64,000 bases of DNA from NCBI GenBank assembly GCA_002011035.2, contig MTLY02000001.1, positions 416,001 through 480,000 on the forward strand, in the 5' to 3' direction. Numbering within the stretch: the stretch's first letter is position 1; each line of letters starts with the position of its first letter. A program made the position numbers and the translations under genes. The notes below the pieces were generated by a model that saw only the letters and a program-made list of their open reading frames with translations, was not told the DNA's origin and made no database searches. Below, one piece after another: positions 12,788 through 56,194 of the stretch. Source of the stretch: Candidatus Hecatella orcuttiae (GTDB taxonomy: Archaea; Thermoproteota; Bathyarchaeia; Hecatellales; Hecatellaceae).

Positions 12788-13963
12788 TTAAGCCCTTGCT
12801 ACTTCTTTAATTATTTTCAGCATTTCTTTAATGACTAAGTTCCAATTGCACATTGCCAAGATTCGTTCTCTCGCTCTTTTACCAATTTCTTGAGCTGATT
12901 CGGTGTGTAGCAAAGTCATTCTGATCTTCTGGACTAATGCCTTTATATCCATAACGTCTATAAGAAAGCCTGTTTCACCATCTTTGATAAATTCTTGAAT
13001 TCCGCCCAGCTTCGTAGTAATTACTGGTTTACCAGTAGCCATAGCCTCCAGAATAGTTAAAGGTGGATCTAAAACGTAACTTCGGAAAGGTAAACAGATA
13101 GTAGTCGAAGGCATTAAAATTTCTCGATATATATCATTACAAAAGCCTTTCCATATAATTTTTGAATTGAGGTTCAAATTGTTTATTATTCTTTCACAAT
13201 AATGTTTAGTAACGGGGTCATCCCGCGGAGAAGCTATCATTAATCTTACATTATGTTTTTCTTTAGCAACCTGTGAAAAAGCTGTTATTACATCTAGGGG
13301 ACCTCTCCACATAGCCAAAGCTCCAAAATAGGTCAGAGTATATTTCGAGGACGCAAAAATATCTGTTACTAAGTTTGGTATATAAATTCCTGGCGGTATT
13401 ATTTTTATGTTAAGAAGATTAGGGGTTATTTTTTGTAAAATACATTTAATATATTTAGACGTGACTACTAATTGAGTTACATTAGATAGACTCCATTTAA
13501 GAATAAATTTAAAAGAATGAATCTTGTTATCGAATAGATTTGGTGTTTTAATTTTTTTAAACAACATAAAAGCAGATAAAAACTCATTAATTGATGTTGG
13601 ATAATTTATTGTATCAATATGATGAATAACAGGCACGTTTGTTAATTTTTCTAAAAGTGCTGAAATAATGCTGAATGATATAGAATTGCGGACATAAATA
13701 ACATCAAATTTTTCTTTTTTAATTATTTTTGAGATTTCAATAAATGATTGTAATTTTTCATTATATAATCCTTTTTTTAAATATTTTATTTGAAAAACAT
13801 TTAAGATGTCGTTTGAAATCGGAAATTTTCCTCGTTCTGTTAATATGATAATATCAGAATGGGGAAGATGTTCCATAAGATGCAATATGGTACTGAGTAA
13901 TTGTTTATTGGTTCCATAAACAACATCCTGTAATATTCCTGGCGCAACGATTCCTATTTTCAT
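12788..13963 (-). CDS. Glycosyltransferase family 4
   Basis: 'PLTILEAMATGKPVITTKLGGIQEFIKDGETGFL'. Paralog of 10656-11888. Confidence 0.87.
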   Translation of the reverse strand: MKIGIVAPGILQDVVYGTNKQLLSTILHLMEHLPHSDIIILTERGKFPISNDILNVFQIKYLKKGLYNEKLQSFIEISKIIKKEKFDVIYVRNSISFSIISALLEKLTNVPVIHHIDTINYPTSINEFLSAFMLFKKIKTPNLFDNKIHSFKFILKWSLSNVTQLVVTSKYIKCILQKITPNLLNIKIIPPGIYIPNLVTDIFASSKYTLTYFGALAMWRGPLDVITAFSQVAKEKHNVRLMIASPRDDPVTKHYCERIINNLNLNSKIIWKGFCNDIYREILMPSTTICLPFRSYVLDPPLTILEAMATGKPVITTKLGGIQEFIKDGETGFLIDVMDIKALVQKIRMTLLHTESAQEIGKRARERILAMCNWNLVIKEMLKIIKEVARA

Positions 13964-16900: not shown

Positions 16901-17721
16901 CCCTTGCTTTGGAATATATCTACAATAAAGGGAACAGTCCAGTAAGCTTGAATTAAAAACGGAGCAAATAATATGATGAATGTGTTTCTCATGCTCTTTA
17001 AGAAGTAATCTTTATTTCTCTTAGCTAAACCGCTATAGATAAAACAGAATAGTAAGAGCATTATTGATATGACAAAATAATTTGTAATCCGCATACTTGC
17101 AATAGCTGACAGTATGCAAGTTAGTAGAAGACACTTAAATTTATGACTTCCTTCAAGAGAGCATGCGAAAAAAGCGAGGACTAAAGGCAGCAATGCGTAG
17201 GTTAATACCATACCAAGATGACCTACTGCGAATTTGTTGAAAATATCAGGTGTCATCATGTAGAAGACCCCTGCTATAATTGATGAGGAAATCGTGACTT
17301 TCATTTGTCTGCATAGATAAAACATGGAATATCCAGCTAAAACCATCGCAAATATGCTGACAAATTTAGAGATAGCTTCACCATCCATGCCGAGCAGGGA
17401 TAGAGAGTAAAGAAATAGCTTATAGTAAAGCCCTGACGAGAAATGCTCGCTTCCGAAAGAGCCCATTGTACCGCCCCAAACGTAGAGGTCCTCTTCGAAC
17501 AGTTGCTTAAATTGAATCGAGAATGGCGGGATATTCCATTCGCCCTCCATAGTGATAACACCAGGGGAAGTGATTACCTTCCGAAACGTGATGAAAGATA
17601 TGCCTAGAAAAAAGGAGAATACACCTAGATTCTGAACAAACGCCCTCATTAATACTTTCTTTTCTAACATTTCTAGATTCTTTCTTTTCGAATATTCAAT
17701 ACAATAGTCTCTCCGCAACAT
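13960..17721 (-). CDS. Large YfhO/AftD-like GT-C membrane protein with extracellular carbohydrate-binding modules
   Basis: About 12 N-terminal TM helices ('GHLGMVLTYALLP', 'FRSVEKW'), 'DDFRVFTLP', 'LNLAAVKYIILD'. Two galactose-binding-like beta-sandwiches flank a CBM11-like insert ('DWSGYDFLSLWWYG...WFGWKELILPL'). C-terminal 'KINPTNYVI..FSERYNPSWK' plus a TM helix. Confidence 0.65.
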   Translation of the reverse strand: MLRRDYCIEYSKRKNLEMLEKKVLMRAFVQNLGVFSFFLGISFITFRKVITSPGVITMEGEWNIPPFSIQFKQLFEEDLYVWGGTMGSFGSEHFSSGLYYKLFLYSLSLLGMDGEAISKFVSIFAMVLAGYSMFYLCRQMKVTISSSIIAGVFYMMTPDIFNKFAVGHLGMVLTYALLPLVLAFFACSLEGSHKFKCLLLTCILSAIASMRITNYFVISIMLLLFCFIYSGLAKRNKDYFLKSMRNTFIILFAPFLIQAYWTVPFIVDIFQSKGAQIISAQLGYIPMRFFISEGYEPNEVLRFIGTHLGYFTLVVRDAPIWQLLSFIPVIFAFSILLFSKKDCRIIFFATLTVLGVTLVSATKGILGSLWFLILESIPFLQIFRSVEKWYPLQSLGLAVLLGLSSETFKHYLYKLIKRVVLIRNHNRIATLKPDGKIKIISLLIIFLIFISSISTYAYPFFTGNFGGRMQTYEFGEKYEQLLHWLSTEPDDFRVFTLPAPYPTLYNDAKYSPTPGYDMMSRYIGRDFIYYGKVNSPPFERFLIKTLYENRTEYLAELLNLAAVKYIILDLNKRTTATDHGWALEFPEMEFTNKKIINTIKQQKDLTQLSLIDSIQIFVNKRFQGHTFPISRIGLFAGDLDGLISLSYLDGLKLDDLGLIFVQQLTKNDLITLANLPNVAVIIQDGHFFDIILAAASKKYLFYPIHYVSEFSPDEGWSFTGWIWYKWRYQAQLEHVAFTFVPSTLRIPFYVEQKGVYEVYSKLYFGPEASKIKFYIDDLKIKEIRTKRIADAGFRWAHVGDVNLNYGNHILAIESEKGENAITNVVVVPKEAVEEAKKLVTEIMLNKQIILFSEMGSVQDDIKLKKSLFTAKWDDENAEFWTISFGGSEGKLGAPAITTETVIVKKGDKAFKFTVPSGGNYTYAAMDHTYSPSEDWSGYDFLSLWWYGKNTGERLTIRIEDSLGQAQEWRLIENWFGWKELILPLKEPDVFWHNPANLSDVAKIRIAKYEAGSWFLDEGGVGVTGIMLSEDYGVNTSEGFAFSVKEMPFSYSLYIPKQGFYNLYVRCLSEIPSTVNVEVNNHHKFTIRLNSTSKYEWYKIGELHLYEGHFKIQFKPDKKNIIYLDQLTIIESSFRPQTSKPADFRAQKINPTNYVISARASEPFYVFFSERYNPSWKIYLNNETYIKSYPAYSFGNIFFINKTGTFDMYLKFDKQLLYEFGFYMSFVSFSVLTLLISIPTNFFKKILNLVKGKR

Positions 17722-38145: not shown

Positions 38146-38231
38146 CCCGGGTTTTTTCAGGCACCAGCCCTAAAGCTCTTTAAGCCACTTGTCCTTCACT
38201 AAAAAGTTAAACAGTGAATGGGGAAAAGGCT

Positions 38232-39131
38232 ATGTGGAAGTTTGAGGCAGAGCAGAAAAAGTACAGGATAGGAAACGTGGAAGTGGGTGGTGTCCCCGGG
38301 GAAAGACCCACCGTCCTGGTAGGCTCCATTTTCCACCACAAACACAGGGTCGTCCGAGACGAACAAAAGGGGGAATTCGACCGGAAGACGGCGGAGGCCC
38401 TGATAAACCTCCAGCATGAGTTCTCCGACAAGACAGGGAACCCCTGCATGCTGGATGTGGTGGGTTCCACGCCTGAGGCCTTGGAGAAGTTCATCGACTT
38501 CGCCGCCGAAGTAAGCGACGGCCCCCTCCTGTTGGACGGGGTCTCGGAATCCGTCCGTTTACCTGTGCTGGACCACGTGAAGGCAGCGGGCCTGTCGGAG
38601 AGAATAGTCTACAACACCGTGTCCCCCCGAGCCTCAGAGGGGGAGCTGGAGAAAATAAAGGAAGCTGGAATCAAAAGCGCTGTGCTCCTCATCTGCCCCA
38701 AGGCGGGTTTCGGCTCCAAGGAAAGGGTGGCCACGGCCAAAGAGCTACTGAAAACGGTGAAGAAGGCCGGGGTGGAGAAACCTCTGATCGACACCTGCAT
38801 CCTCGACGTTCCCACCCTCGGATTCGCCTGCCGAACCATCACCCAGCTGAAAAATGAGCTGGGCGCGGTCATGGGAGGAGGAGCCCACAACGCCGTGGAC
38901 ACGTGGAGGGGCCTCCGGTCTAAGATGGGCCTGCCAGCCGTGAAGCCGGCGGAAGCTTCAGCCAACATCCTCATCGCCGCCGCGGGAGCCGACTTCATCC
39001 TCTACGGCCCTCTAGAAAACGCCGAGTACGTCTTCCCCACGGTGGCCATGGTGGACGCGGCCTTCGCCCAGCTTCGCATGGAGGAAGGCGTGAGGATAAG
39101 CCGGGAGCATCCTAAATACAGAATCGCCTAA
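38232..39131 (+). CDS. mtrH: Tetrahydromethanopterin S-methyltransferase subunit H-like (stand-alone MtrH/MtgA-type)
   Basis: 'MWKFEAEQK..IGNVEVGGVPGERPTVLVGSIFH..H', 'GGAHNA', 'GADFILYGP'. No other mtr subunits nearby. Confidence 0.9.
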   Translation: MWKFEAEQKKYRIGNVEVGGVPGERPTVLVGSIFHHKHRVVRDEQKGEFDRKTAEALINLQHEFSDKTGNPCMLDVVGSTPEALEKFIDFAAEVSDGPLLLDGVSESVRLPVLDHVKAAGLSERIVYNTVSPRASEGELEKIKEAGIKSAVLLICPKAGFGSKERVATAKELLKTVKKAGVEKPLIDTCILDVPTLGFACRTITQLKNELGAVMGGGAHNAVDTWRGLRSKMGLPAVKPAEASANILIAAAGADFILYGPLENAEYVFPTVAMVDAAFAQLRMEEGVRISREHPKYRIA

Positions 39132-39151
39132 CCGGATTCAGGTTCCCAAAA

Positions 39152-39931
39152 TTGGGTGAACTTCTCCCTCTGGAGGAGGTGAAGCTTGAACACCACGGAC
39201 TACTTCTCTGCTATCCAGCTCCAGAGCGGAAGGAATTCGAAAAGCGCCTCCGAGAGCTGGAAAAACTGGGCATCCGGTGCTTAGAGCTGGCGGGAAGCAA
39301 GAGGGTTCACCCCTTCTCCATCCTTGGGAAAGGCTACTCCAGCCTAGTGGTCGCGGCGGTGAGAAGGGATGGACTGCGGTGTGCGCTTAAAATTCGCAGA
39401 CTGGACTCCGGAAAGCCTGACCTCGGCCATGAAGCCACCATGCACTCCGCAGCCAACAGGGTGGGAGTCGGACCCCGCCTCTACGGTTTCACGGAAAACA
39501 TCCTCTCCATGGAGCTGGTGGAAGGCGTACACCTGCCGGAGTGGCTCACCGCTGTGGAGGAGAAGGGAAAGCGGGATGCGGTGAAAAAAGTCTTGAAAGA
39601 AACCCTCACCCAGTGCCGCAGCCTAGATAAGGCTGGGCTGGACCACGGGGAGCTGAGCCTAGCCTCCAAGCACATCCTCATCAGCCGGGAGGATAGGCCG
39701 TACCTCATCGACTTTGAGAAATCCAGCCTAAGGCGGAGGCCTGCCAACGTCACGGCTCTCTGCCACTTCCTCTTCCTCGGAGGCGCCACAGCCGAGCGGA
39801 TAGCCGCACTGATGGGGCGGATAAGCCGGGAGGCTCTCCGCGAGCTGCTGAGACGGTACAAGGCTGAGCTTGACGACGGAGCCTTTGAAAAGCTTCTCTC
39901 CGCCCTGTTTCCCAGGTCGGTTTTTTCGTAG
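39152..39931 (+). CDS. Archaeal RIO/Bud32-like Ser/Thr protein kinase
   Basis: 'ILGKGYSSLVV', 'ALKIRR', 'HGELS..KHILI', 'IDFEKSS'. Confidence 0.82.
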   Translation: MGELLPLEEVKLEHHGLLLCYPAPERKEFEKRLRELEKLGIRCLELAGSKRVHPFSILGKGYSSLVVAAVRRDGLRCALKIRRLDSGKPDLGHEATMHSAANRVGVGPRLYGFTENILSMELVEGVHLPEWLTAVEEKGKRDAVKKVLKETLTQCRSLDKAGLDHGELSLASKHILISREDRPYLIDFEKSSLRRRPANVTALCHFLFLGGATAERIAALMGRISREALRELLRRYKAELDDGAFEKLLSALFPRSVFS

Positions 39932-45177: not shown

Positions 45178-45861
45178 CTATGTCCCCTTATCCAATAAAA
45201 CCAGTTGACTGCAGAGATCGTCTCCTCTCACGATGCATTTTTCCAGTTTTATTCTATCAGTGTTCAAGATTCTAGCCACAGCTCCCTGATGCATCACGCA
45301 GAGTAGACCGTTTAACTCAGGGATAACGTCCCCGAAAACACAGTTCCGGTAAGTGATGATATACTCCTCGCCGCGCTTCGAAAGGGATGTGAAAAAACCG
45401 AACTCATCGAAAAGCTTCACCATCTTCTTCAGCCGACGGCTGCCGTCTTTGGGCAGGTGAGGCAGGAAGTAGCCGGCAAGGTCTTCGGAGAGCCCCTCCA
45501 TCAGCACCCTGAGAGCCTGCTTGCCGTATATTCTAGTGATTCTCCGGGTTAGCAAAGCGACGAGCACGTCGCTTTTTTTCGGAAGAATCCTCCTGCCCAG
45601 CTGGGTTAGGCGGTATTTCTTCTTCGGCCGCCCGACGGAAGACCTGTCGAAGTATGGGGAAACGAGGCCCTCCCGCTCCAAGATGGATAGATGACGCCTG
45701 ACTGCGCTTTCGTTGATACCCAGTTTCTTCTCGAGTTCAATGGCGTTGAGATCTCCTTGGAGAAGATAGGTGAAGATCAGCTCTCGAGTCCCCTTTATTT
45801 CCACCCCTAATCTTCGGCCGTGCTCAGCAGGCTGATTTATTTGTTCAATTTTCGCTGCCAT
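45178..45861 (-). CDS. Winged-HTH transcriptional regulator with Cys-containing C-terminal sensor (SufR/V4R-like)
   Basis: 'ELEKKLGINESAVRRHLSILEREGLV...GRPKKKYRLT'. C-terminal 'YRNC..LLCVMH..KCIVRGDDLC'. Confidence 0.82.
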   Translation of the reverse strand: MAAKIEQINQPAEHGRRLGVEIKGTRELIFTYLLQGDLNAIELEKKLGINESAVRRHLSILEREGLVSPYFDRSSVGRPKKKYRLTQLGRRILPKKSDVLVALLTRRITRIYGKQALRVLMEGLSEDLAGYFLPHLPKDGSRRLKKMVKLFDEFGFFTSLSKRGEEYIITYRNCVFGDVIPELNGLLCVMHQGAVARILNTDRIKLEKCIVRGDDLCSQLVLLDKGT

Positions 45862-45914: not shown

Positions 45915-45945
45915 TTTATATAGTTTACTCACAAAATAGTGAGTA
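45915..45945. promoter_or_regulatory. TATA box followed by a perfect 7-6-7 inverted-repeat operator
   Basis: TTTATATA at 45915-45922 and TACTCAC-AAAATA-GTGAGTA at 45926-45945, in the divergent intergenic region between the regulator and the hemerythrin gene. Confidence 0.7.
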
Positions 45946-45981: not shown

Positions 45982-46761
45982 ATGGACGAATATCTGAACA
46001 TGGAGGTCAAGGAGGTTATCTCAAAATTTCCCGAGGCAGCGCGAGTGCTGGACGAATACAACATCGGATGCACCGTCTGCAACGCAGGGTCTTGCCTCCT
46101 AAAGGACATCGTGGAAATACACAGTCTATCTTCGGATGAAGAGCAAGAGCTGATGGCCAAACTTGCCAGAGTGGTCTATCCAGGCCGGGATGTGAAGGTG
46201 CTTGAGGTTGGAAGAAAACCTAAAGCTAAACCTGAGAGGGTGAAGTATTCCCCGCCCTTGAAAAAACTGGTGGACGAGCATTTGCTGATAAAAAGGTGGA
46301 TAGCGCTGATACCCAAGCTGGCTGAAAGCTTGGACGTTAACACAGAAGAGGGGAGACAATTGGTCCTTCAAGGAGTTGATTTTATCCGCACCTATGCAGA
46401 CCGGTATCACCACGCCAAGGAGGAGGAAGTTCTCTTCAAGTACTTTGACGAAAACCTAGAAATCCTCAAGACCATGCACGCCGACCATGAAAAGGCGAGA
46501 AGCCATGTGAGGAGCATCCTTCAAGCTGTGGAGGAAAAAAATGGAGAAGCCGTCAAGGAGCATCTAAACGCCTACAGGGAGTTGCTGACAGAGCACATCA
46601 AAAAAGAAGATGAGATCCTCTACCCTTGGATGGACAGGGGACTCTCCCTAACTCAAGTGGGAGAGCTGTTTTCAAGATTCAACGAGTTGGAGGAGCAGTT
46701 TCAAACTGTCCCTGAAAAATATGAAGAGTTCATCCGAAAACTGGAAGAAAAATTCAGGTAA
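45982..46761 (+). CDS. ScdA_N/DUF1858-like plus hemerythrin domain protein (RIC/YtfE-like architecture)
   Basis: N-terminal 'VKEVISKFPEAARVLDEYNIGCTVC..C.LKDI'. HHE motifs 'DEH', 'YADRYHHAKEEEVLF', 'DHEKAR', 'HIKKEDEILYP'. Confidence 0.85.
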   Translation: MDEYLNMEVKEVISKFPEAARVLDEYNIGCTVCNAGSCLLKDIVEIHSLSSDEEQELMAKLARVVYPGRDVKVLEVGRKPKAKPERVKYSPPLKKLVDEHLLIKRWIALIPKLAESLDVNTEEGRQLVLQGVDFIRTYADRYHHAKEEEVLFKYFDENLEILKTMHADHEKARSHVRSILQAVEEKNGEAVKEHLNAYRELLTEHIKKEDEILYPWMDRGLSLTQVGELFSRFNELEEQFQTVPEKYEEFIRKLEEKFR

Positions 46762-46784: not shown

Positions 46785-47252
46785 ATGGTGTTTGAAGGCT
46801 GTCCGGGTTCGCATACATTGGATTTGAGGGAAAAAGAAACCCGAGAAACAACCCCCACAGAAAAAGTTAGGTCTCAGCTTAGACAGTGGCCGATTCAGCT
46901 ACACCTGATCTCGCCCACCGCGCCCTACTATCAGGGGGCGGATGTGCTTCTGACGGCTGACTGCGTGGCTTACGCGTTGGGTAACTTCCACACCGACTAC
47001 TTGAAGGGCAAGTCCATTGCCATCGCCTGCCCTAAGCTGGACGAAGGCCAAGATGTCTACGTGGAGAAGATTAAGTCTTGGCTGGAAGATGCTAAGATAA
47101 ACACTCTCTCGGTGTTGATCATGCAGGTTCCCTGCTGCATGGGATTGGTGAACCTAGCTCAGCAGGCTGCTGAACGTTCGAAGAGAAAAGTCCCCATCAA
47201 ATCCATCATCGTCGGCATACAGGGCGACATCCTCTCAGAGGAGTGGGTGTGA
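46785..47252 (+). CDS. Cys-rich Fe-S-binding protein (C-terminal domain of FrdX-like ferredoxins), no N-terminal ferredoxin domain
   Basis: 'GCPGS', 'SQLRQWPIQLHL', 'LLTADC', 'ACPKLD', 'MQVPCCMGL'. Strong GGAGGTG SD. Confidence 0.75.
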   Translation: MVFEGCPGSHTLDLREKETRETTPTEKVRSQLRQWPIQLHLISPTAPYYQGADVLLTADCVAYALGNFHTDYLKGKSIAIACPKLDEGQDVYVEKIKSWLEDAKINTLSVLIMQVPCCMGLVNLAQQAAERSKRKVPIKSIIVGIQGDILSEEWV

Positions 47253-47404: not shown

Positions 47405-48961
47405 TTGGTCAACCTTAGAAAAAGCCTTTGGGGCAAAGGCTACCAGCCCAAGCTGGTTCAAGTTCCCCAAACCGACTACAAAGAACTGGTGAGGGTGGGG
47501 CTGGACAGGTTCACCGAGAGCGCCGCCGGATTCGCGAAGCCGGTATACTTCATCGTAGCCTCAGTGGAGCTGGGGAACACCACCACCAAGTGCATCCTGA
47601 CGGCCACCAACCTTCGGGAACAGAAGATCTACCTCCTGAACAAAACCGTCCGGTTGACCAAGGAGATGAGAAGCCCCCTACCTGGGGAGGAGGTCTTTGG
47701 GGAGACCGTCTGGAAAAAAGAGCTCACCGTCAACGCGGTGAAGGAGTTCATCCGCGACACTCTCCTCCAGTGTTTGGAGGAGGCAAAAATAGACAAGGAC
47801 AGAGACCTCCACTTCGTGGTAAGGTCCACCGGTGTGACCGCCGGTTTCGCCACGCCGGAGGAAGTGGGCGCCATGATCCACGCCTTGGCCCAAGGCTGTC
47901 TAGCTGCCGGCATCAGCTCCTCCAAGATGGTGGCCCCCCTGACCAAGGAGCATGTCCCCAAGGAGCTCAGAGAATACTCGCTGCTGGACAAGGTGCCCTT
48001 CGACGGCTCTGTAGCCGGAAGCTTGCCGCCTCGAACCCCCGGCCAAGTTATCGCCAACGAAATGGAAGCCGAGCTGTCCACTGCTGGGTTGAAGATGGGA
48101 GCCCGCTGGATAGGCTTCGACTTCCGAAACCCGGTGGTGGCAATGGACTTCGGCACAACCCTGAAGGGTAGGATAACCGACAAGTCGTCTCCCTACGCTC
48201 AAACCGTGGGAAGCATAGCCGGCTTGGGCGGAGCTATACCCGACGCCCTCGTCCAAGGCGCCGGCCTCGTGGACGCTGAAAACGGCTCTGTCCTAGAAGC
48301 TCGGGCTGAGGAAGCCGGCGGGAGGAGGGTCTCAGGAGGCTGGGAAGACTGGGTGGAGGACGCCTTGAAACATCTGCGGATAATGGCGATTCCCCCTGAC
48401 AGTTCAAGGTTTGGAACGGTTCCAGTGAACCCTAAGGCTGCTAGGGAGGCAGCCGTGTTCCTGATAGGCTGCGACATCGGAGTGAACGGGAGCAACATCC
48501 CCAAGCTCCGCAGGCTGGGGGAGAAAATCCGCCGAGAGCAAGGGCTCCCAGCCCTGTTTAGGGTGATAGACGCTCTCATGGCCCGGGTGGCCTCCCGCAT
48601 CGTGGAGCTGGCCATGGAAGCGGGGCTGATAGGCGCTGATGTCTCCATAGGCCTCACCGGTCGGGCGGGCATAACAGGCGAGAAACCTCAGGCCTTCCTG
48701 AAGCTCGTTGACGATTTGGGGCTGTATCCTCGTGGAGCCGTAAGCGACCGGGTGGTGTTCGTGGAGGACGCCTTGGCCCTCGGAGCCGGAGTGATGAGCA
48801 GGTGCATGTTCAGCTTGGGCACGCCTAAGAAGCCTTTGGGGGGAAGACGGGGGGAACCCTGCATCCTAGCCAAGCGGATGAAATATTTGGAGAAGACAGC
48901 CGCCTGGACTCCCCAGCACCTCAAGGAACTGAAGACATCTCCAGCAGCCCGAGAAGAGTAG
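47405..48961 (+). CDS. Methanogenesis marker protein 14 (DUF2114) homolog, ASKHA-type ATPase fold
   Basis: 'YFIVASVELGNTTTKCILTATNL', 'LHFVVRSTGVTAGF', 'ANEMEAEL', 'FRNPVVAMDFGTTL.GRIT', 'GL.GAIPD', 'TGRAGITG.KP', 'LGTPKKPLGGRRGEPCIL'. Confidence 0.85.
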   Translation: MVNLRKSLWGKGYQPKLVQVPQTDYKELVRVGLDRFTESAAGFAKPVYFIVASVELGNTTTKCILTATNLREQKIYLLNKTVRLTKEMRSPLPGEEVFGETVWKKELTVNAVKEFIRDTLLQCLEEAKIDKDRDLHFVVRSTGVTAGFATPEEVGAMIHALAQGCLAAGISSSKMVAPLTKEHVPKELREYSLLDKVPFDGSVAGSLPPRTPGQVIANEMEAELSTAGLKMGARWIGFDFRNPVVAMDFGTTLKGRITDKSSPYAQTVGSIAGLGGAIPDALVQGAGLVDAENGSVLEARAEEAGGRRVSGGWEDWVEDALKHLRIMAIPPDSSRFGTVPVNPKAAREAAVFLIGCDIGVNGSNIPKLRRLGEKIRREQGLPALFRVIDALMARVASRIVELAMEAGLIGADVSIGLTGRAGITGEKPQAFLKLVDDLGLYPRGAVSDRVVFVEDALALGAGVMSRCMFSLGTPKKPLGGRRGEPCILAKRMKYLEKTAAWTPQHLKELKTSPAAREE

Positions 48962-49077
48962 GCCGGGACTTCAGCCTGCCCGGGGAACATTCCGCAACGT
49001 CCTCACGCCGGCTGGGAGTCAGGGAGACTAAACCTTAAAAATTCTCAAGCACCTAGAGAGTCTAGCTTCCCTAGGCG

Positions 49078-51015
49078 GTGGAGATGACTTCATCCAACGT
49101 GGAAAATACTCGCCCCCCAAACAAGCATCTGGTTGTCTTCCAGCCCAGTGGGCGAAGAGAATATTTCAGTAGCTCGCAGACGCTGCTGGACGCTGCCAAA
49201 GAGCTGGGAGTGCCCATCGAAAGCGTGTGCGGCGGGGAGCGGTGGTGCGCCAAGTGCAAGGTCATCATCGAGAGAGGCATGGAAAACCTCTCCCCTCTCA
49301 CTTTGGAGGAAAAGCAGCTTCTGAGGGATGAAGAGCTTAACTCCAACTACAGGCTGGCTTGTTGCAGCGAGATAAGGGGGGATGTCGTTGCCCTCGTGCC
49401 CGAGGTCAGCAAGGCGGCGGTTCAGGTTGTCCGAAAGCCTGTTCGGGAGATCCCTGTAAAACTGGACCCCGCGGTGAAGAAATACTACGTGGAACTGAAG
49501 CCTCCAAGCCTTCAAGACCCCCTAGGCGACTTGGACAGGCTGCTAGAAGCTTTAAGGGACAGCTACGGCCTAGACGGCTTAAACATCGATTACTCCGTCC
49601 TCCGGGAGCTTCCCTCCACCTTGAGGGAGGGAAACTGGAAGGTCACGGTCACTGTTTGGGATTCCAGGGAAATCATCCGGGTGGAGCCCGGCTTGGTTAA
49701 GGAGGCCTACGGCTTAGCTGTGGACATAGGAACCACCACGGTGGTCGGCTATCTGCTGGAGCTCTCCACCGGAAAGCTGGTTTCGGTTTACTCCATGATG
49801 AACCCCCAAGTGCCGTTCGGGGAGGATGTCATGTCCCGGATCAGCTACACCATCGCCAACCCCGACGGCTTAGAGAAGCTTCACTCGAAGATTCTCACGG
49901 GCATAAACCTCATCCTCCTCAACACGGCGAGGGATGCGGGGATCACCTACGACGACATCTACGAAATTGTCCTCGTGGGAAACACCTGCATGCACCATCT
50001 CTTCCTAAAATTGGACCCCCAGTTTTTAGGCCGGTCTCCTTTCCCTCCCACAGTTCACAGGGCCGTTAACCTGAAACCCCGGGAGCTGGGCTTGAACATG
50101 TGGAAGGCGGGGAACGTTCACTTTCTCCCCGTGGAAGCCGGGTTCGTGGGGGCTGACAACGTGGGCGTGCTCATCACAGTGGAGCCTTGGAAAAAATCTG
50201 AGGTTCAACTCATCATCGACATCGGAACCAACGGGGAGCTGGTCTTGGGAAACAACACCCGGCTTCTCTCCGCCTCCTGCGCCACAGGGCCTGCCTTCGA
50301 GGGAGCCCACATGAAATATGGGATGAGGGCGGCTCCAGGGGCCATTGAGAGAGTCAAGATAGACCCAGACAGCATGGAGGTTGAATACGAAACCATCGAG
50401 GGCGAAAAGGCCCGGGGCATATGCGGCTCAGGCATCATCGAAGCCATGGCTGAAATGTTCAAGGCGGGAGTCATTCTGAAAAACGGAAACATCAACAAAG
50501 ACCTCCGCAGCCCACGCCTGAGGCAGGGGGAAGACGGCTACGAGTTCATTCTCGTCCCCAAGGAGGAAACGGCCATCGGAGCCGACATCGTCGTAACCCA
50601 GAAAGACGTGAGAGCCATCCAGCTGGCTAAGGGAGCCATGTACACAGGGGCTAAAATCTTGATGAAGCACTTCGGCGTCCGGGAGCTGGATGAGGTTGTC
50701 TTGGCAGGGGCTTTCGGAAGCTACATCGACAGGGAAGCCTCCATGGCCATAGGCTTGTTCCCCGACTGCGACCTAGCCAAGGTGAAGGCGGTGGGGAACG
50801 CGGCGGGCGACGGGGCGAGGTTAGCTCTTCTCAGCAGGGAGAAAAGGGAAGAAGCCTATGAAGTTGCGAAGAAGGTGAAATATGTGGAATTGACCGTGGA
50901 CCCTTCCTTCCAATCGGAGTTCATGAAGTCCATGTTTTTCCCCCACAAGGAGGACCCTTTCCCCCACCTCAACCACCTCTGGGATAACATGCCCAAACAG
51001 CAGGGAAAAGTTTAA
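49078..51015 (+). CDS. RACo/RamA-type reductive activator of corrinoid proteins (2Fe-2S plus ASKHA)
   Basis: N-terminal [2Fe-2S] 'SVCGGERWCAKC...RLACC', 'AVDIGTTT', 'NPQ..GEDVMSRI', 'IDIGTNGE', 'CATGPAFEG', 'GICGSG', 'LAGAFG', 'GNAAG.GA'. Confidence 0.92.
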   Translation: MEMTSSNVENTRPPNKHLVVFQPSGRREYFSSSQTLLDAAKELGVPIESVCGGERWCAKCKVIIERGMENLSPLTLEEKQLLRDEELNSNYRLACCSEIRGDVVALVPEVSKAAVQVVRKPVREIPVKLDPAVKKYYVELKPPSLQDPLGDLDRLLEALRDSYGLDGLNIDYSVLRELPSTLREGNWKVTVTVWDSREIIRVEPGLVKEAYGLAVDIGTTTVVGYLLELSTGKLVSVYSMMNPQVPFGEDVMSRISYTIANPDGLEKLHSKILTGINLILLNTARDAGITYDDIYEIVLVGNTCMHHLFLKLDPQFLGRSPFPPTVHRAVNLKPRELGLNMWKAGNVHFLPVEAGFVGADNVGVLITVEPWKKSEVQLIIDIGTNGELVLGNNTRLLSASCATGPAFEGAHMKYGMRAAPGAIERVKIDPDSMEVEYETIEGEKARGICGSGIIEAMAEMFKAGVILKNGNINKDLRSPRLRQGEDGYEFILVPKEETAIGADIVVTQKDVRAIQLAKGAMYTGAKILMKHFGVRELDEVVLAGAFGSYIDREASMAIGLFPDCDLAKVKAVGNAAGDGARLALLSREKREEAYEVAKKVKYVELTVDPSFQSEFMKSMFFPHKEDPFPHLNHLWDNMPKQQGKV

Positions 51016-51052
51016 ACAAAATTCGCGGAAAAGACATACCTGAGGCTTTCAG

Positions 51053-52120
51053 ATGAAACCCTACGACAGGGTTATGGCTGTCCTCCAAGGAAGAAGCGGG
51101 GAAGCAGATAGAATTCCCTGCGTAAACTTCACCTCCACAGCCACCCTCCAGTTCATGGAAGCCACAGGCGCATGGTGGCCTGAAGCCCACCGGGAGCCTG
51201 AAAAAATGGCTAAGCTGGGCTCCGCAGCCCACCGCCTCTGCGGCTTAGACAACGTCACCGTCCCCTTCGACATGGTTGTGGAAGCCGAACTGCTGGGTGC
51301 TCCTCCAGAGTTTTTCGAAGCTGAGAAGGCGGAAGGCGAAGTGAGGCAGCCCAGTGTCAAAGCTTTCGTGGTTAAGGAGCCTTCAGACCTGAAGATTCCC
51401 AGCGACGTCGCTTCGGCTGGGAGGCTGCCCGTGGTAGTTAAGGCTGTGAAAATTTTGAAGGAGGAGTTTGGAGGGAAAACCCCCGTCAACGTCTTCATGG
51501 TTCCCCCCTTCACATGCCTCTGCAACTACTTGGTGGACACTCTCACCTTTCTCAAAACCATGGTTAAGGAGCCTGAGAAGATCCGTAGCTTCCTAGACGC
51601 CAGCCTAGACCTTTTCATCCAGGAAGCCCGCGTCTACGAGGAGGCCGGCGCGGATGTCATCACCCTCCACGAGATGGGCGCCTGCTGCGGGGTCATAGCG
51701 CCCAGCCACTTCAAGGACTTTGTCGCCCCCTACCTGAAAAAACTGGTCAAAAGCGTGAAATGCCCCACTGTGCTCAACATCTGCGGCCCCACGGAGAAGA
51801 TTCTCCCCATGATGGTGGAATGCGGAGCCAACGCTGTGGCCATCGATGAAACAACCCCCATCAAGGAGGCGAGGAGAATCGTCGACGCAGCGAAACCCGG
51901 CTATCCCATCGCCGGCAACATCTCCCCAAAAAAAATCCTGAGGGACGGAACCCCGGAAGTCATCGCTGGGGCGGTGAAGACGGTTATTGAGGAGGGAGTC
52001 AGCATCGTTTCCCCAGGCTGCGATTTCTTCTTGGACACGCCCATCGGAAACATCAAAACCTTCGTGGAGACTGTGGTGAAATTCGGCTCAGGAGGCGGAG
52101 GTCTCACCATAAATCCCTGA
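51053..52120 (+). CDS. MtaA/CmuA-family methylcobamide methyltransferase (URO-D fold)
   Basis: 'WPEAHREPEKMAKL', 'VPFDMVVEAELLG', 'GADVI', Zn-site-like 'LNICG' (Asn in place of the usual His), 'GNISP', 'SPGC'. Confidence 0.85.
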   Translation: MKPYDRVMAVLQGRSGEADRIPCVNFTSTATLQFMEATGAWWPEAHREPEKMAKLGSAAHRLCGLDNVTVPFDMVVEAELLGAPPEFFEAEKAEGEVRQPSVKAFVVKEPSDLKIPSDVASAGRLPVVVKAVKILKEEFGGKTPVNVFMVPPFTCLCNYLVDTLTFLKTMVKEPEKIRSFLDASLDLFIQEARVYEEAGADVITLHEMGACCGVIAPSHFKDFVAPYLKKLVKSVKCPTVLNICGPTEKILPMMVECGANAVAIDETTPIKEARRIVDAAKPGYPIAGNISPKKILRDGTPEVIAGAVKTVIEEGVSIVSPGCDFFLDTPIGNIKTFVETVVKFGSGGGGLTINP

Positions 52121-52180
52121 AAGCCCCTTTTAGGGTATGTTTTTTAAACGTCGGAGACCTACTAATGGTGGGTCGCTGTC

Positions 52181-52384
52181 ATGTATGAGAAGCACCGCCA
52201 CTGTGTTGTTTGCGACATATCCATAAGCCCTGAGAAGAATCCGCCTGTCTGCAGCAAGAAATGTCTTCTTGAATACAATAAAAGAATGAAGAAGCAGCAG
52301 TGGGTTCGACTGCTCATGTTCATCCCCCTCATAGCCATCATGGCCATGCTTCTCCTAGGCCAACTGTTAGGCGGCTCTCCCTAG
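52181..52384 (+). CDS. DUF2116-family Zn-ribbon membrane protein
   Basis: 'HRHCVVC..I.P....CSKKC' plus a C-terminal TM helix. Confidence 0.78.
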   Translation: MYEKHRHCVVCDISISPEKNPPVCSKKCLLEYNKRMKKQQWVRLLMFIPLIAIMAMLLLGQLLGGSP

Positions 52385-52433
52385 AAGCTCTAAACCAAAG
52401 CCTCTGCAGCCGTTTCCTAAGAGCCGGAAGAGG

Positions 52434-52844
52434 CTAAGCTTCAAGCTGTTGTTTCACGTATTCAGCGTAGTCCTCCGCTTTCATGAGACTTTCCAGCTCT
52501 TTCAAGTCCTTAGGCTTCAGCCGGGCAATCCAGCCCTTGCCGTAGGGGTCTCGGTTGATGAGCTCCGGAGAGTCCTTCAAGGCTTCGTTGACTTCCACAA
52601 CCCGGCCTGAGAGGGGACTGTAGACCTCCGCCACCGCCTTCACCGACTCTAGGCTGCCCAGGGAATCCTTCTGCTTGACCTCCGCATCCTTCTCCGGCAG
52701 CTGGACGAAGACAACTTCGTGGAGCATTCTCTGAGCGTAGTCAGCAACGCCCACCCTTACCAAGCCGTCTTCCTCCAGCGAAGCCCACCCATGCTCCGCG
52801 GTGTAGTAGAGGTTTTCCCGCACTTCCACACTGTCAACCTTCAC
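52434..52844 (-). CDS. gcvH: Glycine cleavage H protein (lipoyl carrier)
   Basis: 'YYTAEHGW', 'VGVADYAQ', lipoyl-Lys 'ESVKAVAEVYSPLSG', 'PELINRDPYGKGW'. Probable GTG start at 52844 after GGGAGGGG. Confidence 0.93.
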   Translation of the reverse strand: MKVDSVEVRENLYYTAEHGWASLEEDGLVRVGVADYAQRMLHEVVFVQLPEKDAEVKQKDSLGSLESVKAVAEVYSPLSGRVVEVNEALKDSPELINRDPYGKGWIARLKPKDLKELESLMKAEDYAEYVKQQLEA

Positions 52845-52964
52845 AGCTTTCCCCTCCCATACCCAAGGAGCTGCCGAGAGGATAAGAAACACTTTAGGGG
52901 AGGTCCTTTATAAATTCCCTTTCCAAAGCTAATTCATAAACCCCCAGCCAAGGCGGAGCGGAAG

Positions 52965-53984
52965 ATGGAGGGCGCCCCCGGGTTTATCAGGGTTTCCCGA
53001 GGCTCCGAGTTTACCCTAGGCCTGAAAAGGGGCTTCGCAAGCGTGAAGCCCACCGTGGCTTATCTTCTAACCCACCATCCCCAAGGATGCTTCGCCAACT
53101 GTGCCTTCTGCACCCAAGCGAGGAGCAGCGTCTCCCACGCTGACATGCTTTCCCGGGTAATCTGGCCTCTCCACCCCCTTCAAGCAGTGGTCCGAGGTCT
53201 GAGGCGGGCTGAGGCTGAAGGGGCTGTTAAGAGAATCTGCATTCAAACCTTGAACTATCCCGGCATGTTCGCCGATGTCCTAAGCCTCCTGAGTGTTTTC
53301 AGAAAAGCCGTGGAGATGCCTGTTTCCCTCTCCTGCCAACCCTTGGAAGAGGAAGAAATTAGGCTTCTGAAGGAAGCCGGCTTAGACAGGCTTGTCTTCC
53401 CCTTGGACGCTGCCACCGAAGAGGTCTTCGAGAGGGTGAAGGGCAAGGGGGTGGGAAACCCCTTCACCCGAAGCGGGTGTCTCACCGCGTTGGAGAAGGC
53501 TGTGGAAATCTTCGGGCGAGGCAAGGTTGGAAGTTACTTGATGGTGGGGTTGGGGGAAACGGAGCGGGAGGCTGTGGCCGCTGTTCAGGAGCTGAAAGAC
53601 CTAGAAGTCTTCACCAGCCTCTTCGCCTTCACACCCATCCCCGGAACGGGGCTGGAGAACCAGCCTAAACCGTCTTTGGTAAGCTACAGGAAGATTCAGC
53701 TGGCCCACTTCCTCATCGAACGAGAACTGGCTAGGTTCGAAGACATGACCTTCACGGAAAAAAACAACCTAGCCGGCTTCGGCCTAAGCTACGACACGCT
53801 GAAGGACATCGTAGCCTCTGGGTTGCCCTTCCAAACTCGAGGCTGCGCAGGGTGCAACCGGCCCTACTACAACGAGGACCCTAAAGGGCCCTTCTACAAT
53901 TATCCCCGCTCCTTAACGGCGGCGGAAGTTTCCGAAATTGCAGCGGCTTTGAAGCCCTACCTGAATGGGGAACTTAGAGGGTGA
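52965..53984 (+). CDS. lipS2: Archaeal-type lipoyl synthase subunit LipS2 (radical SAM)
   Basis: CxxxCxxC 'GCFANCAFCTQ', 'LSRVIWP', C-terminal 'TRGCAGCNRP' signature. Adjacent to gcvH and lplA. Confidence 0.85.
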   Translation: MEGAPGFIRVSRGSEFTLGLKRGFASVKPTVAYLLTHHPQGCFANCAFCTQARSSVSHADMLSRVIWPLHPLQAVVRGLRRAEAEGAVKRICIQTLNYPGMFADVLSLLSVFRKAVEMPVSLSCQPLEEEEIRLLKEAGLDRLVFPLDAATEEVFERVKGKGVGNPFTRSGCLTALEKAVEIFGRGKVGSYLMVGLGETEREAVAAVQELKDLEVFTSLFAFTPIPGTGLENQPKPSLVSYRKIQLAHFLIERELARFEDMTFTEKNNLAGFGLSYDTLKDIVASGLPFQTRGCAGCNRPYYNEDPKGPFYNYPRSLTAAEVSEIAAALKPYLNGELRG

Positions 53985-54044
53985 AAAACTATTTATCTCC
54001 GTTTTTTCCTCTTTGAGGGGAGCATTTTCCCAGAGCTGTAAAGG

Positions 54045-54824
54045 GTGTTCGACATGGGAGTTGAGGAATGGCGGTACCTAGACCATGGGGCCTCCGACGC
54101 CTGCACCAACATGGCTGTGGATGAGGCTGTTTTGCAGGGAAGCATCCGAGGGGTTTCCCCGCCTACCCTCCGCCTCTACACATGGAAGCCTTCCGCTGTC
54201 TCCATAGGTTTCTTCCAGAGCGTGGAGCAGGAAGTAGACTTGGAGGCATGCCGGGAGCTGGGCGTCGACGTCATCAGGCGGATAACAGGAGGCGGGGCGG
54301 TTTACCATGATAGGCAAGGGGAGCTAACCTACAGCATCGTGGTGCCTGAATCTTGGGGGAAAACTCCGAAGGACTTTCTCGAGTCCTACCGGTTTCTTTG
54401 CAGGGGACTGGTCTTAGGATTGAGGCAGATGGGTGTAGAGGCGGAGTTCACCCCCATCAACGACATCACCGTCCGGGGGAGGAAGATTTCAGGGAACGCC
54501 CAGACGAGGAGAAGCGGCTCCATCCTCCAGCATGGAACTCTCCTGCTCCAGACGGACATCCCCACCATCTTCCGGGTGTTGAAGGTGTCCAAAGAAAAGC
54601 TCAGCGACAAAGCCGTCCGAGCCTTCGAGGGAAGAGTGACCACTCTCCTCAAGGAAACGGGGAGAAAGCCTGAGCTGGAGAGGGTGAAGGAAACCTTGAA
54701 AAAAGGCTTCGAGGAAGCCTTGGAGGTGAGGCTTACCCCCGGCCGGCTCACTGAAGGGGAAAGAGCGGAGGCGGAGAAGCTGAAGCGAAAATACTCCTCC
54801 AGAGAGTGGACCTTCAGGAGGTGA
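54045..54824 (+). CDS. lplA: Lipoate-protein ligase catalytic subunit
   Basis: 'NMAVDEA', 'RRITGGGAVYHD', 'NDI..GRKISGNAQ', 'LQHGTLL'. Confidence 0.93.
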   Translation: MFDMGVEEWRYLDHGASDACTNMAVDEAVLQGSIRGVSPPTLRLYTWKPSAVSIGFFQSVEQEVDLEACRELGVDVIRRITGGGAVYHDRQGELTYSIVVPESWGKTPKDFLESYRFLCRGLVLGLRQMGVEAEFTPINDITVRGRKISGNAQTRRSGSILQHGTLLLQTDIPTIFRVLKVSKEKLSDKAVRAFEGRVTTLLKETGRKPELERVKETLKKGFEEALEVRLTPGRLTEGERAEAEKLKRKYSSREWTFRR

Positions 54825-54830
54825 AGCCTC

Positions 54831-55124
54831 ATGTCTGTCTGCGAAGCGGAATACAAGGTGGCGGGAGGGAAGATGATCCGCATCCGCCTGAACGTGAAAG
54901 AAGGAGCTCTTTCCTCCATCCGGATTACCGGGGACTTTTTCATGCACCCGGAGGAAGCCTTGGAAAAGCTGGAATCCTCCCTCCGAGGCGTCAAGGTGGA
55001 AGAGGCCGAGGGGCTGGAGAGGCATATCGACGCCTTCCTCAGCGAAAACCATGTTACTGTCCTCGGAGCCGCCTCCAGAGACTTCGCCGCCGCCATCCTG
55101 AAAGCCTTAAGGACGCCGGCTTAG
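54831..55124 (+). CDS. lplB: Lipoate-protein ligase accessory subunit (LplB)
   Basis: 'YKVAGGKMIRI', 'ITGDFFMHPEEA..LE..L.G'. Confidence 0.87.
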   Translation: MSVCEAEYKVAGGKMIRIRLNVKEGALSSIRITGDFFMHPEEALEKLESSLRGVKVEEAEGLERHIDAFLSENHVTVLGAASRDFAAAILKALRTPA

Positions 55125-55153
55125 CAGGAAACGGTAACCCAGCTGGCTTAGGA

Positions 55154-56194
55154 TTAATGCTGAATTTGCTGACGGATCGGAGTCTGGCTCAAGTCGCTGA
55201 AAACCTGAGAGCAGCAAAAGGGCGAAAAGCTCACGTCTAAGCCCATCTTTTCCGCCAGGCGAACTGCCTCCTCCGAGGGGAAGGCGATGGCATTCACACC
55301 AGCCTCTACGGCCAGCCTGTCGGTTTCCGCCCTATGCCTCCTCAGAGGCCTTACGCACCCCAAGACCAAGGGGGTTGCCGGCATCAGTTTTCTTGCATGG
55401 ATAATTACCTGAACTACTTCCCGTGGGCTGGGCGGGGTCACCGACTCCATGACTGTTCCTTTCAAAGGGTTCAGGACGATGATTATGAGGGCTTGGGGGT
55501 TGTAGCGGGAGATAAGCTTCAAAGCCTTGAACTCCCCCCTTAGTCTTCCGTGGTGAAGACCCACGAGGACGTGAGGCACTAGGGGAACCTGCGCCTCATG
55601 AAGCAGTTGAAGGGTCCTCCGGTAGTCTTCTACCCCCAGCTCAGCATGGTAAACCTGTTTCACCGTCTCCTCACAGCCGATAACATCTACGAGGACAGCG
55701 TCCACCTCGGCCTCCTTCAGCCCCCAAGCCAGTTCTTCGTCCTTGACCACGCCTGTGTGAACCGCCACGTGGAAGCCCAGCTCCCTCTTCACCCACCTGA
55801 TGGCTGGGAGGAACCGGCGGAGGGGAACTTCCCCCGTAGGCTGGCAGCCGCCGCTGATGAGGCATCCCACAGCGCCTTTCTCTTTCAGGCTTCTGCAGAG
55901 TTCGGCCAGCTTTTGAGGGGAAGTGGCGGAAAGCATGTTCTCCAGCACTTTTCCGCCGCAGTGGTCGCATCGGAGAGAGCAGAAGCTTCCTGTGATGGAG
56001 ATGGAAGGGTAACTCCCCCGGAGAGCGGAGGCCAGCCGGCTTCGGTGAGGGGAGAAGGAGGGAACATAGAAATGTATCTGCTTCCCGAAGCTTCTCCAGC
56101 TGACTTCTCTCGCCCATCTTAGATCTTTTCTCAGAGACCCTTCCTTCAGGAGTGGGGGAGCGAGTCCTCCTTCTCCTCTGTCGCTTTGTTTCAC
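55154..56194 (-). CDS. lipS1: Archaeal-type lipoyl synthase subunit LipS1 (radical SAM)
   Basis: 'SITGSFCSLRCDHC', 'GCLISGG', 'LGCVRP' and C-terminal 'FCCS' signatures. Confidence 0.85.
   Translation of the reverse strand: MKQSDRGEGGLAPPLLKEGSLRKDLRWAREVSWRSFGKQIHFYVPSFSPHRSRLASALRGSYPSISITGSFCSLRCDHCGGKVLENMLSATSPQKLAELCRSLKEKGAVGCLISGGCQPTGEVPLRRFLPAIRWVKRELGFHVAVHTGVVKDEELAWGLKEAEVDAVLVDVIGCEETVKQVYHAELGVEDYRRTLQLLHEAQVPLVPHVLVGLHHGRLRGEFKALKLISRYNPQALIIIVLNPLKGTVMESVTPPSPREVVQVIIHARKLMPATPLVLGCVRPLRRHRAETDRLAVEAGVNAIAFPSEEAVRLAEKMGLDVSFSPFCCSQVFSDLSQTPIRQQIQH

Follow-up and report, generated by a model that had tools for sequence, protein, structure and literature searches.

Why would an archaeon without Mcr keep a protein known as a methanogenesis marker, and why would the gene for it lie beside that of a corrinoid activator? 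The question is raised by locus 47405..52120 of a 64,000-nucleotide stretch of contig MTLY02000001.1 (positions 416,001 to 480,000) of Candidatus Hecatella orcuttiae; this whole stretch is called the window here, and coordinates refer to it unless another source is named. Three co-oriented genes make up the locus:

47405..48961, + strand: marker 14 (DUF2114, arCOG04866), a putative ATPase of ASKHA fold, 518 amino acids (aa)
49078..51015, + strand: RACo, the reductive activator of corrinoid proteins, 645 aa, four domains
51053..52120, + strand: methyltransferase of the MtaA/CmuA family and URO-D fold with Asn242-x-Cys244, 355 aa

The original prediction had named these families and reported no mcr genes in the window. 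Both statements hold: Pfam and TIGR hidden Markov models (HMMs) confirm the families at these coordinates on the + strand, and the Pfam/NCBIfam annotation of the window contains no mcr gene. The evolutionary partner of marker 14, however, is canonical Mtr, with its corrinoid carrier MtrA and with MtrH, and is neither RACo nor Mcr.

Marker 14, a single-copy gene in this genome, matches TIGR03285 (methan_mark_14) with 572.1 bits (cut-off 274) over profile positions 1-445 of 446, and PF09887 (DUF2114) with 613 bits over positions 2-448 of 449. RACo, the sole one of the genome (a single genomic match), has all of its Pfam domains above cut-off and arranged as an N-terminal [2Fe-2S] ferredoxin (Fer2, 5e-10), a linker (RACo_linker, 4e-31), a middle domain (Raco_middle, 4e-53) and a C-terminal ASKHA domain (RACo_C_ter, 3e-102); it scores below the equivalog cut-offs of AcsV (501.5 bits vs 800) and of the RamA subfamily (118.8 vs 500). 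The MtaA-like protein matches URO-D (4e-69), TIGR01463 (244.9 bits vs a cut-off of 235.4) and NF004889 (285.1 vs 244), and lies below the equivalog cut-offs of MtaA_Meth (269.1 bits vs 400) and MtbA (221.4 vs 600). Marker 14 and RACo are separated by 117 bases, RACo and the MtaA-like gene by 38. The marker 14-RACo junction is crossed by contigs of four public DNA runs, including an 890-base contig from a run that is not flagged as a possible source; the adjacency is thus real and not an assembly artefact.

When oxidised to Co(II), corrinoid methyltransferases become inactive; the ASKHA activases RACo and RamA restore them with ATP and a low-potential electron. Mtr, the sole energy-conserving step of hydrogenotrophic methanogenesis, works with Co(I) only; methyl-reducing methanogens of the Methanomethylicia kind depend on soluble corrinoid proteins. 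To our knowledge, marker 14 is among the few remaining "methanogenesis markers" to which no function has been assigned.

Marker 14 follows Mtr

The genome (1.75 Mb, three contigs, 97% complete) holds no McrA candidate anywhere in its sequence. Queries from a same-family relative for McrC, for DUF2112 and DUF2113 (Mmp5 and Mmp6) and for the BcrAD-type marker (Mmp15) give no tblastn match in it. Another contig carries a complete mtrEDCBA(F)GH operon, and the genome encodes 15 corrinoid-protein cap domains and six URO-D paralogues. These contents are best explained by an archaeon in which Mcr has been lost and all of Mtr, 15 corrinoid proteins and a single RACo have been kept. The named sequences nearest to marker 14 and to the MtaA-like protein come from 'Candidatus Hecatellales archaeon B24' and Bathyarchaeota, which probably places the organism in or close to that order of Bathyarchaeia.

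Among 61 relatives, marker 14 is found in five (G000, G002, G010, G012 and G013, one of the five matches being a fragment at a contig end). These are exactly the genomes that carry MtrE, and the same five have canonical MtrA (223-236 bits); eight genomes with solely divergent MtrA-like proteins (95-143 bits) are without marker 14. McrA occurs in one of the 61 (G002), RACo in 35, and Mch, the marker of the tetrahydromethanopterin (H4MPT) pathway, in 51. In a second class, that of the genome behind a locus titled 'Candidatus Methanomethylicia' (L023), 62 genomes of unreported completeness include ten with marker 14, 36 with McrA and five with MtrE: all five MtrE genomes have marker 14, 33 of the 36 McrA genomes do not, and seven of the ten marker 14 genomes have no McrA. 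In Methanocaldococcus jannaschii (M. jannaschii), used as an Mtr-bearing control, marker 14 is present and the RACo_C_ter family is not detected; some Mtr organisms are thus without a RACo/RamA-type activase yet possess marker 14.

Gene order tells the same partner. The synteny set comprises 85 loci, 80 of them from species genomes (up to 8 kb on each side) and five from relatives (1.5 kb). In 42 of these loci marker 14 is preceded by an mtrH gene, and in 19 of the 42 the distance between the two is below about 450 bases. Whole mtr operons run straight into marker 14 in two same-family relatives, in a Methanomethylicia-titled locus, in Methanobacterium and in a Methanomicrobiales-titled locus (all by Pfam), and Nezhaarchaeales and 'Nitrososphaerota' loci have an mtrH-marker 14 pair adjoining mtrA(/B). 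The same arrangement beside mtrA(/B) persists in two genomes without an MtrE match (G062, G064). A conserved marker 14-RACo synteny, which had been named as a check, was not seen: in none of the 85 other loci do the retrieved flanks of marker 14 contain RACo or the MtaA-like gene, and the 1.5 kb around RACo in 29 other RACo loci include neither marker 14 nor the MtaA-like gene.

Marker 14 is therefore decoupled from Mcr, as had been proposed: its own genome has no McrA, McrA is confined to one of the 61 relatives, and 33 of 36 McrA genomes in the second class do without marker 14. The proposed tie to corrinoid enzymes stands as far as the corrinoid methyltransferase Mtr is concerned and falls for soluble corrinoid proteins and RACo, which are not conserved partners. 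In sum, likeness to ASKHA proteins (below) and linkage to corrinoid genes are found, and marker 14 does not track strictly with mcr; yet the partner is Mtr, not RACo.

The decoupling from methanogenesis is likewise correct, and it is not new. Borrel 2014 (PMC4153887) gives marker 14 (arCOG04866) as absent from Methanomassiliicoccales. According to Adam 2022 (PMC9635834), 'm26, which is tied to Mtr' is retained both by Bathyarchaeia (Hecatellales) that have a complete Mtr and no Mcr and by Thorarchaeia with MtrAH; from its matching distribution, m26 is apparently marker 14. In these two papers, the Mtr link of marker 14 and its loss from Mcr-only methanogens are already published.

Three further observations belong here. 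That marker 14 might track the methanopterin pathway in general was considered and rejected: with Mch in 51 of the 61 relatives vs marker 14 in five, it is not tied to methanopterin as such. The sole Mcr-bearing genome among the 61 relatives is that of a member of the same family (G002; McrA 968 bits, C1:244851-246497), and in its locus L101 the mtr operon is followed by marker 14, HypA, DUF2112, a BcrAD-type ATPase, McrC and DUF2113. A CobB/CbiA-type a,c-diamide synthase (G000 contig 2, 113130-114536; L149:7131-8534) lies two genes downstream of mtrH, the spot occupied by marker 14 in relatives.

Fold, conservation and isolation of marker 14

Conservation was read from an alignment of 35 rows, the window protein (row 1) and 34 further members including methanogen orthologues, to which it is 47-60% identical. 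Invariant throughout are ELGNTTTK, ANEMExEL, DFGTT, GCDxGxNG and TGRAG, along with cysteines C165, C356, C467 and C486, all four kept in the window protein. The motifs quoted in the original prediction (VELGNTTTK, ANEMEAE... and MDFGTT) are present and fall on invariant columns; we take these conserved motifs of phosphate-loop and adenosine type to correspond to the named ASKHA motifs. Such invariance of the nucleotide loops points to real ATP turnover, as judged from the alignment.

An AlphaFold2 model built from the 35 sequences (pLDDT 85.4, pTM 0.87) plainly has the predicted two-lobed, actin-like fold of an ASKHA ATPase. Exhaustive structure comparison returns 150 chains at Z >= 8. The best match, type III pantothenate kinase (CoaX; Z 17.4, root-mean-square deviation 3.3 over 244 residues), is accompanied by FtsA (Z 17.1), the ATPase subunit of a benzoyl-CoA-reductase-type enzyme (3-methylbenzoyl-CoA reductase; Z 16.8), an HgdC-type activator (Z 15.4) and EutJ (Z 15.1); the diol-dehydratase reactivase DdrA (2D0O_A) stands at rank 45 (Z 12.4, 276 residues aligned). 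Foldseek finds 404 matches to the model at E <= 0.001, with ASKHA proteins as the top ones listed; RACo chains have the lowest E-value, yet a TM-score of just 0.29. Model, fold matches and invariant motifs agree in making marker 14 an ASKHA protein with conserved phosphate loops, as first proposed.

By sequence, the family stands apart. The marker 14 profile matches no PDB chain, DdrA included, and a Pfam scan of the 35 members at E up to 10 gives no consistent second family beyond DUF2114, a result in which HMMER filters may have dropped weak matches. Profile-profile alignment by hhalign is insignificant against the RACo of the window (0.4% probability), against E. coli EutA (0.6%, over 20 columns that cover the P-loop only) and against E. 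coli EutJ (0.1%). A profile search of 1.84 billion representatives yields just 166 matches at E <= 0.001, and all 21 of the full- or near-full-length ones that were checked are DUF2114. When DUF2114 is set aside, a language-model search for look-alikes places clusters of EutA reactivases nearest (0.81-0.83), which, below the bar of 0.9, is a lead only. No longer proteins (908-2590 aa) related to marker 14, i.e., fused forms, were found, which is weak evidence.

A metagenome scan for close relatives recovered 13 loci, all at or below 55% identity and none closer to the window protein; an 89%-identical marker 14 protein (P0002) lies on a 7.4-kb contig. Shorter, divergent DUF2114 forms of about 340-410 aa also exist (P0282-P0342, P0254), one of them named as from an MSBL1 archaeon, and some 398-aa forms carry the names Undinarchaeales or Methanopyri. 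These short forms may represent a sister subgroup and have another partner.

A rearranged gene trio

If Mtr is the partner, the company of RACo needs a separate account. The nearest genus has the three genes at separate sites: marker 14 follows mtrH, RACo (67-68% identity) is located elsewhere, and the orthologue of the N-x-C MtaA-like protein (52-57% identity) sits among genes for TBP, arginyl-tRNA synthetase and a protease. The last context was scanned in three of the four fetched nearest-genus loci; the ORF (open reading frame) layout of the one left out, L157, mirrors that of L156. The trio is thus a rearrangement, and no other genome in the comparison shows it. The idea that RACo forms a conserved pair with the N-x-C MtaA-like gene was also considered and rejected (0 of 29 RACo loci).

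The trio is nevertheless suggestive, in that it gathers scattered genes, all three corrinoid-related, in one place. It would represent a second, independent genomic tie of marker 14 to corrinoid repair, albeit a modest clue.

A possible maintenance factor for MtrA

Why Mtr might need a dedicated ATPase is suggested by a 2026 preprint on anaerobic Mtr (bioRxiv 10.64898/2026.07.03.736320): catalysis requires Co(I), and the corrinoid of the purified complex is reported as Co(II). The MtrA cytoplasmic domain shuttles between an MtrH-bound and an MtrCDE-bound position, and Mtr has a newly reported Fe8S9C cluster. Mcr, for comparison, has an activation complex of McrC, Mmp3, Mmp7, Mmp17, A2 and DUF2098 (PMC12176620), and a term search of that paper finds no mention of marker 14. 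For MtrA, no activase is described in the literature searched.

The reading that we develop, and to which we give an even chance, is that marker 14 uses ATP to maintain the cobamide of MtrA and is specific to Mtr. It would dock on MtrA once the cobamide is inactive Co(II) or is missing, and binding and hydrolysis of ATP would open up the cofactor site, so that the cobamide could be re-reduced to Co(I) or loaded, with reductive activation favoured over loading or exchange. Marker 14 would then be for Mtr what RACo and RamA are for soluble corrinoid proteins, and RACo itself would most likely go on serving the soluble ones. In this genome the marker 14 gene would have left its usual place behind mtrH for its present one beside RACo and the MtaA-like gene, where the nearby hemerythrin genes and MsvR-like regulator (see below) would fit a co-regulated repair of oxidised corrinoid enzymes. 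A bolder version, which we hold only tentatively and with more doubt than belief, makes marker 14 the missing MtrA activase or cobamide chaperone, a third ASKHA type that is free of an Fe-S domain and was recruited together with RACo into a repair locus under redox-stress control; the electron would come from RACo, or from a ferredoxin, and the conformational step, driven by ATP and specific to Mtr, from marker 14. Co-folding of marker 14 (residues 44-500, 35 rows) with the soluble domain of MtrA (18-186, 9 rows) reached a best score of 0.20, under the mark of 0.32, in a run without controls, and speaks neither for binding nor against it.

Several points weigh against a role in MtrA maintenance. 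Marker 14 adjoins RACo in one genome only, and the intervals of 153 bases before marker 14 and 117 before RACo contain TATA-like boxes, which would permit separate promoters. Loci of Methanosarcinales, Methanococcales and Methanoperedens have marker 14 without an mtr neighbour. Co-occurrence among related genomes is non-independent evidence, and the second class contributes genomes whose completeness is not reported. In contrast to RACo and RamA, marker 14 shows neither an Fe-S nor a ferredoxin domain that can be recognised (Pfam reports DUF2114 only). Small-molecule kinases such as CoaX are among its closest matches in fold, and it might therefore be an enzyme and not a chaperone. The literature searched by name holds passing mentions of marker 14 and no biochemical or genetic study of it.

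The original prediction had cast marker 14 as a cobamide-exchange chaperone in the manner of DdrA that works alongside RACo; the reading as weighed here adds EutA as a model and would have marker 14 eject damaged cobamide from the soluble methyltransferase corrinoid proteins. Membership of the ASKHA superfamily is indeed shared with DdrA (Z 12.4; TM 0.46 to a DDR cluster), the language-model lead (0.81-0.83) is to EutA, the phosphate-1 loop ELGNTTTK resembles DIGTTTTQ of E. coli EutA, and RACo is next door in this genome. The parallel holds at the superfamily level and no closer, however: DdrA is just at rank 45 of the fold matches, and no HMM or profile connects marker 14 to the DDR or EutA families. 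The distribution of marker 14 also speaks against a helper of soluble corrinoid proteins, the gene being missing from 33 of 36 Mcr-bearing genomes of the second class and from most relatives with RACo (5 vs 35 of 61), while none of the 29 other RACo loci adjoins it. Co(II) corrinoids of methyl transfer are, moreover, generally repaired by reduction and not by exchange. With Mtr as the conserved partner and nothing that speaks specifically for exchange, the proposal as first made is very improbable.

The Mtr link itself would be accounted for equally if marker 14 served the complex without touching its cobamide, e.g., as an actin- or Hsp70-like factor for assembly, docking or regulation of the MtrA-MtrH stalk, or as a metallocluster helper. 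Co-occurrence and synteny with mtr are identical under this reading, FtsA, PilM and EutJ among the top fold matches act by protein-protein contacts, and both the shuttling of the MtrA domain and the Fe8S9C cluster of Mtr would offer such a factor work to do. Marker 14 persists, however, beside mtrH and mtrA(/B) where no MtrE is matched (G062, G064), and, as m26, in Thorarchaeia that have MtrAH only (Adam 2022, PMC9635834); its retention without MtrE argues against a role in the membrane part of Mtr or its cluster. Strictly invariant nucleotide loops also favour ATP turnover over a purely structural role, and we consider this reading unlikely. Less still can be said for marker 14 as a small-molecule kinase or other enzyme whose Mtr link is indirect and whose place beside RACo is a chance rearrangement. 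Its best fold match is a pantothenate kinase (Z 17.4) with several sugar kinases at Z 12-15, the trio occurs in one genome only, and its genes may have separate promoters. On the other hand, no cofactor is known that canonical MtrA and MtrH alone would need, and general biosynthesis of cobamide, methanopterin or coenzyme M misfits a protein that most genomes with Mch (51 of 61 relatives), with Mcr or with RACo do without; three corrinoid-related genes, scattered in the nearest genus, are contiguous here. Such a role has only a slight chance of being right.

If marker 14 does maintain MtrA, a missing piece in the biochemistry of both methane formation and anaerobic methane oxidation would be supplied, the retention of marker 14 by Mcr-less archaea with Mtr or MtrAH would be explained, and methanogen inhibition would gain a new target. 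For heterologous tests, the locus provides a compact set of three genes.

The N-x-C methyltransferase

The third gene of the locus poses a question of its own. Alignment of its product to a solved MtaA (4AY7) sets 'LNICG' against 'LHICG', with Asn242 in place of His and both Cys kept; the motif His-x-Cys...Cys is presumably that of the MtaA zinc ligands. The N-x-C reported for H-x-C at this site is thus confirmed, and it turns out to be a trait of a whole clade: the Asn is kept in 119 of 120 homologues, which marks a distinct clade and not a decayed copy. The five other URO-D paralogues of the genome all have H-x-C. Source names of the N-x-C homologues include Hadarchaeum, Syntropharchaeia, Heimdallarchaeota, Hecatellales and Bathyarchaeota, and the clade is present in five of the 61 relatives, four of which carry Mtr.

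Also conserved in the clade are H206, C23 and C63, which could complete an altered metal site. The likely task of the enzyme, by way of that site, is methyl transfer between a corrinoid protein and an acceptor thiol. The clade occurs in many non-methanogenic archaea and is, in its own right, a minor lead towards a changed metal site or acceptor. An extra Cys-Cys pair at 212-213, in the HEMGxxxx loop, is found in the window protein alone (1 of 120 homologues).

Surroundings of the locus

Around the trio, the window holds the following elements:

38214..39131, + strand: MtrH-family paralogue (PF02007 MtrH, 2e-80), 8 kb upstream and given as context only
45178..45861, - strand: ArsR-type helix-turn-helix regulator with a methanogen output domain (MetOD1, MsvR-like; HTH_5 3.6e-9, MetOD1 7.3e-5, weak MsvR 5e-4)
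45926..45945, no strand: perfect 7-nucleotide inverted repeat TACTCAC-6-GTGAGTA in the divergent promoter region, beside a TTTATATA box
45982..46761, + strand: DUF1858-like and hemerythrin-domain protein of RIC (iron-centre-repair-like) kind (Hemerythrin 2.4e-14; weak RIC/YtfE-type matches)
46785..47252, + strand: Cys-rich ORF of 155 aa, followed by a 153-base gap before marker 14
52140..52145, + strand: T6 run, 20 bases past the stop codon of the MtaA-like gene, read from the sequence

The trio thus lies downstream of two hemerythrin-domain genes and a divergent ArsR-type regulator. The DUF1858-hemerythrin gene opens the co-oriented run, and the regulator gene diverges from it; the inverted repeat between them is a candidate operator for redox-responsive control. 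These surroundings hint at redox-stress control of the trio. The Cys-rich ORF has no Pfam or NCBIfam match and no tblastn match in the 85 marker 14 loci. The T6 run could mark the end of an archaeal transcript.

The MtrH paralogue is 34% identical (tblastn) to the canonical MtrH of the genome's mtr operon. It is followed, within 38214-39931, by a 259-aa ORF with weak RIO/Kdo kinase-like matches, and paralogues of its type (43-55% identity) adjoin RACo in five of the 29 RACo loci of relatives. On the other side of the trio, the space between the MtaA-like gene and a convergent gcvH holds a small ORF of about 67 aa (52182-52385, + strand) that, read by eye, is rich in Cys at its N-terminus and ends in a hydrophobic tail; with gcvH begins a full lipoylation set (52434-56194: GcvH, LipS2, LplA large subunit, LplB and LipS1). 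Farther away, positions 1-23500 have about 35% G+C vs about 55% in the remaining window and are dense in genes for glycosyltransferases, sugar-modifying enzymes and B12-radical-SAM proteins; this part looks like a surface-glycan island, possibly acquired. A 1252-aa ORF at 13960-17721 (- strand) has no Pfam match.

Comparison with known systems

Measured against the published marker 14 family, the window protein is an ordinary member: it matches over its full length, keeps the invariant residues and comes from a host genome with Mtr. What sets it apart is the position of its gene, beside RACo and the MtaA-like gene and not behind mtrH, an arrangement found in none of the 85 other loci. The MtaA-like protein resembles the methylcobamide:CoM methyltransferase MtaA of Methanosarcina (4AY7) in its URO-D fold (1.3e-49 over residues 6-339) and in the conserved cysteines of the C-terminal PGC and of ICG, and differs from it in the Asn that replaces the His of H-x-C and in scoring below the MtaA and MtbA equivalog cut-offs.

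With the activases RACo (3ZYY, 4C1N) and RamA, marker 14 shares the ASKHA fold and the context of a corrinoid enzyme; it differs from them in having no ferredoxin or Fe-S domain, and the distance from RACo is large in structure (TM-score 0.29) and in sequence (hhalign 0.4%). DdrA (2D0O) and EutA are, like marker 14, ASKHA ATPases with a T-rich phosphate-1 loop, and they too belong with B12 enzymes, which they service; a family-level sequence match to marker 14 is absent, and DdrA ranks 45th by fold. The chemistry differs as well: these reactivases exchange the cofactor on adenosylcobalamin radical enzymes, whereas Mtr is a methyltransferase that cycles between Co(I) and methyl-Co(III).

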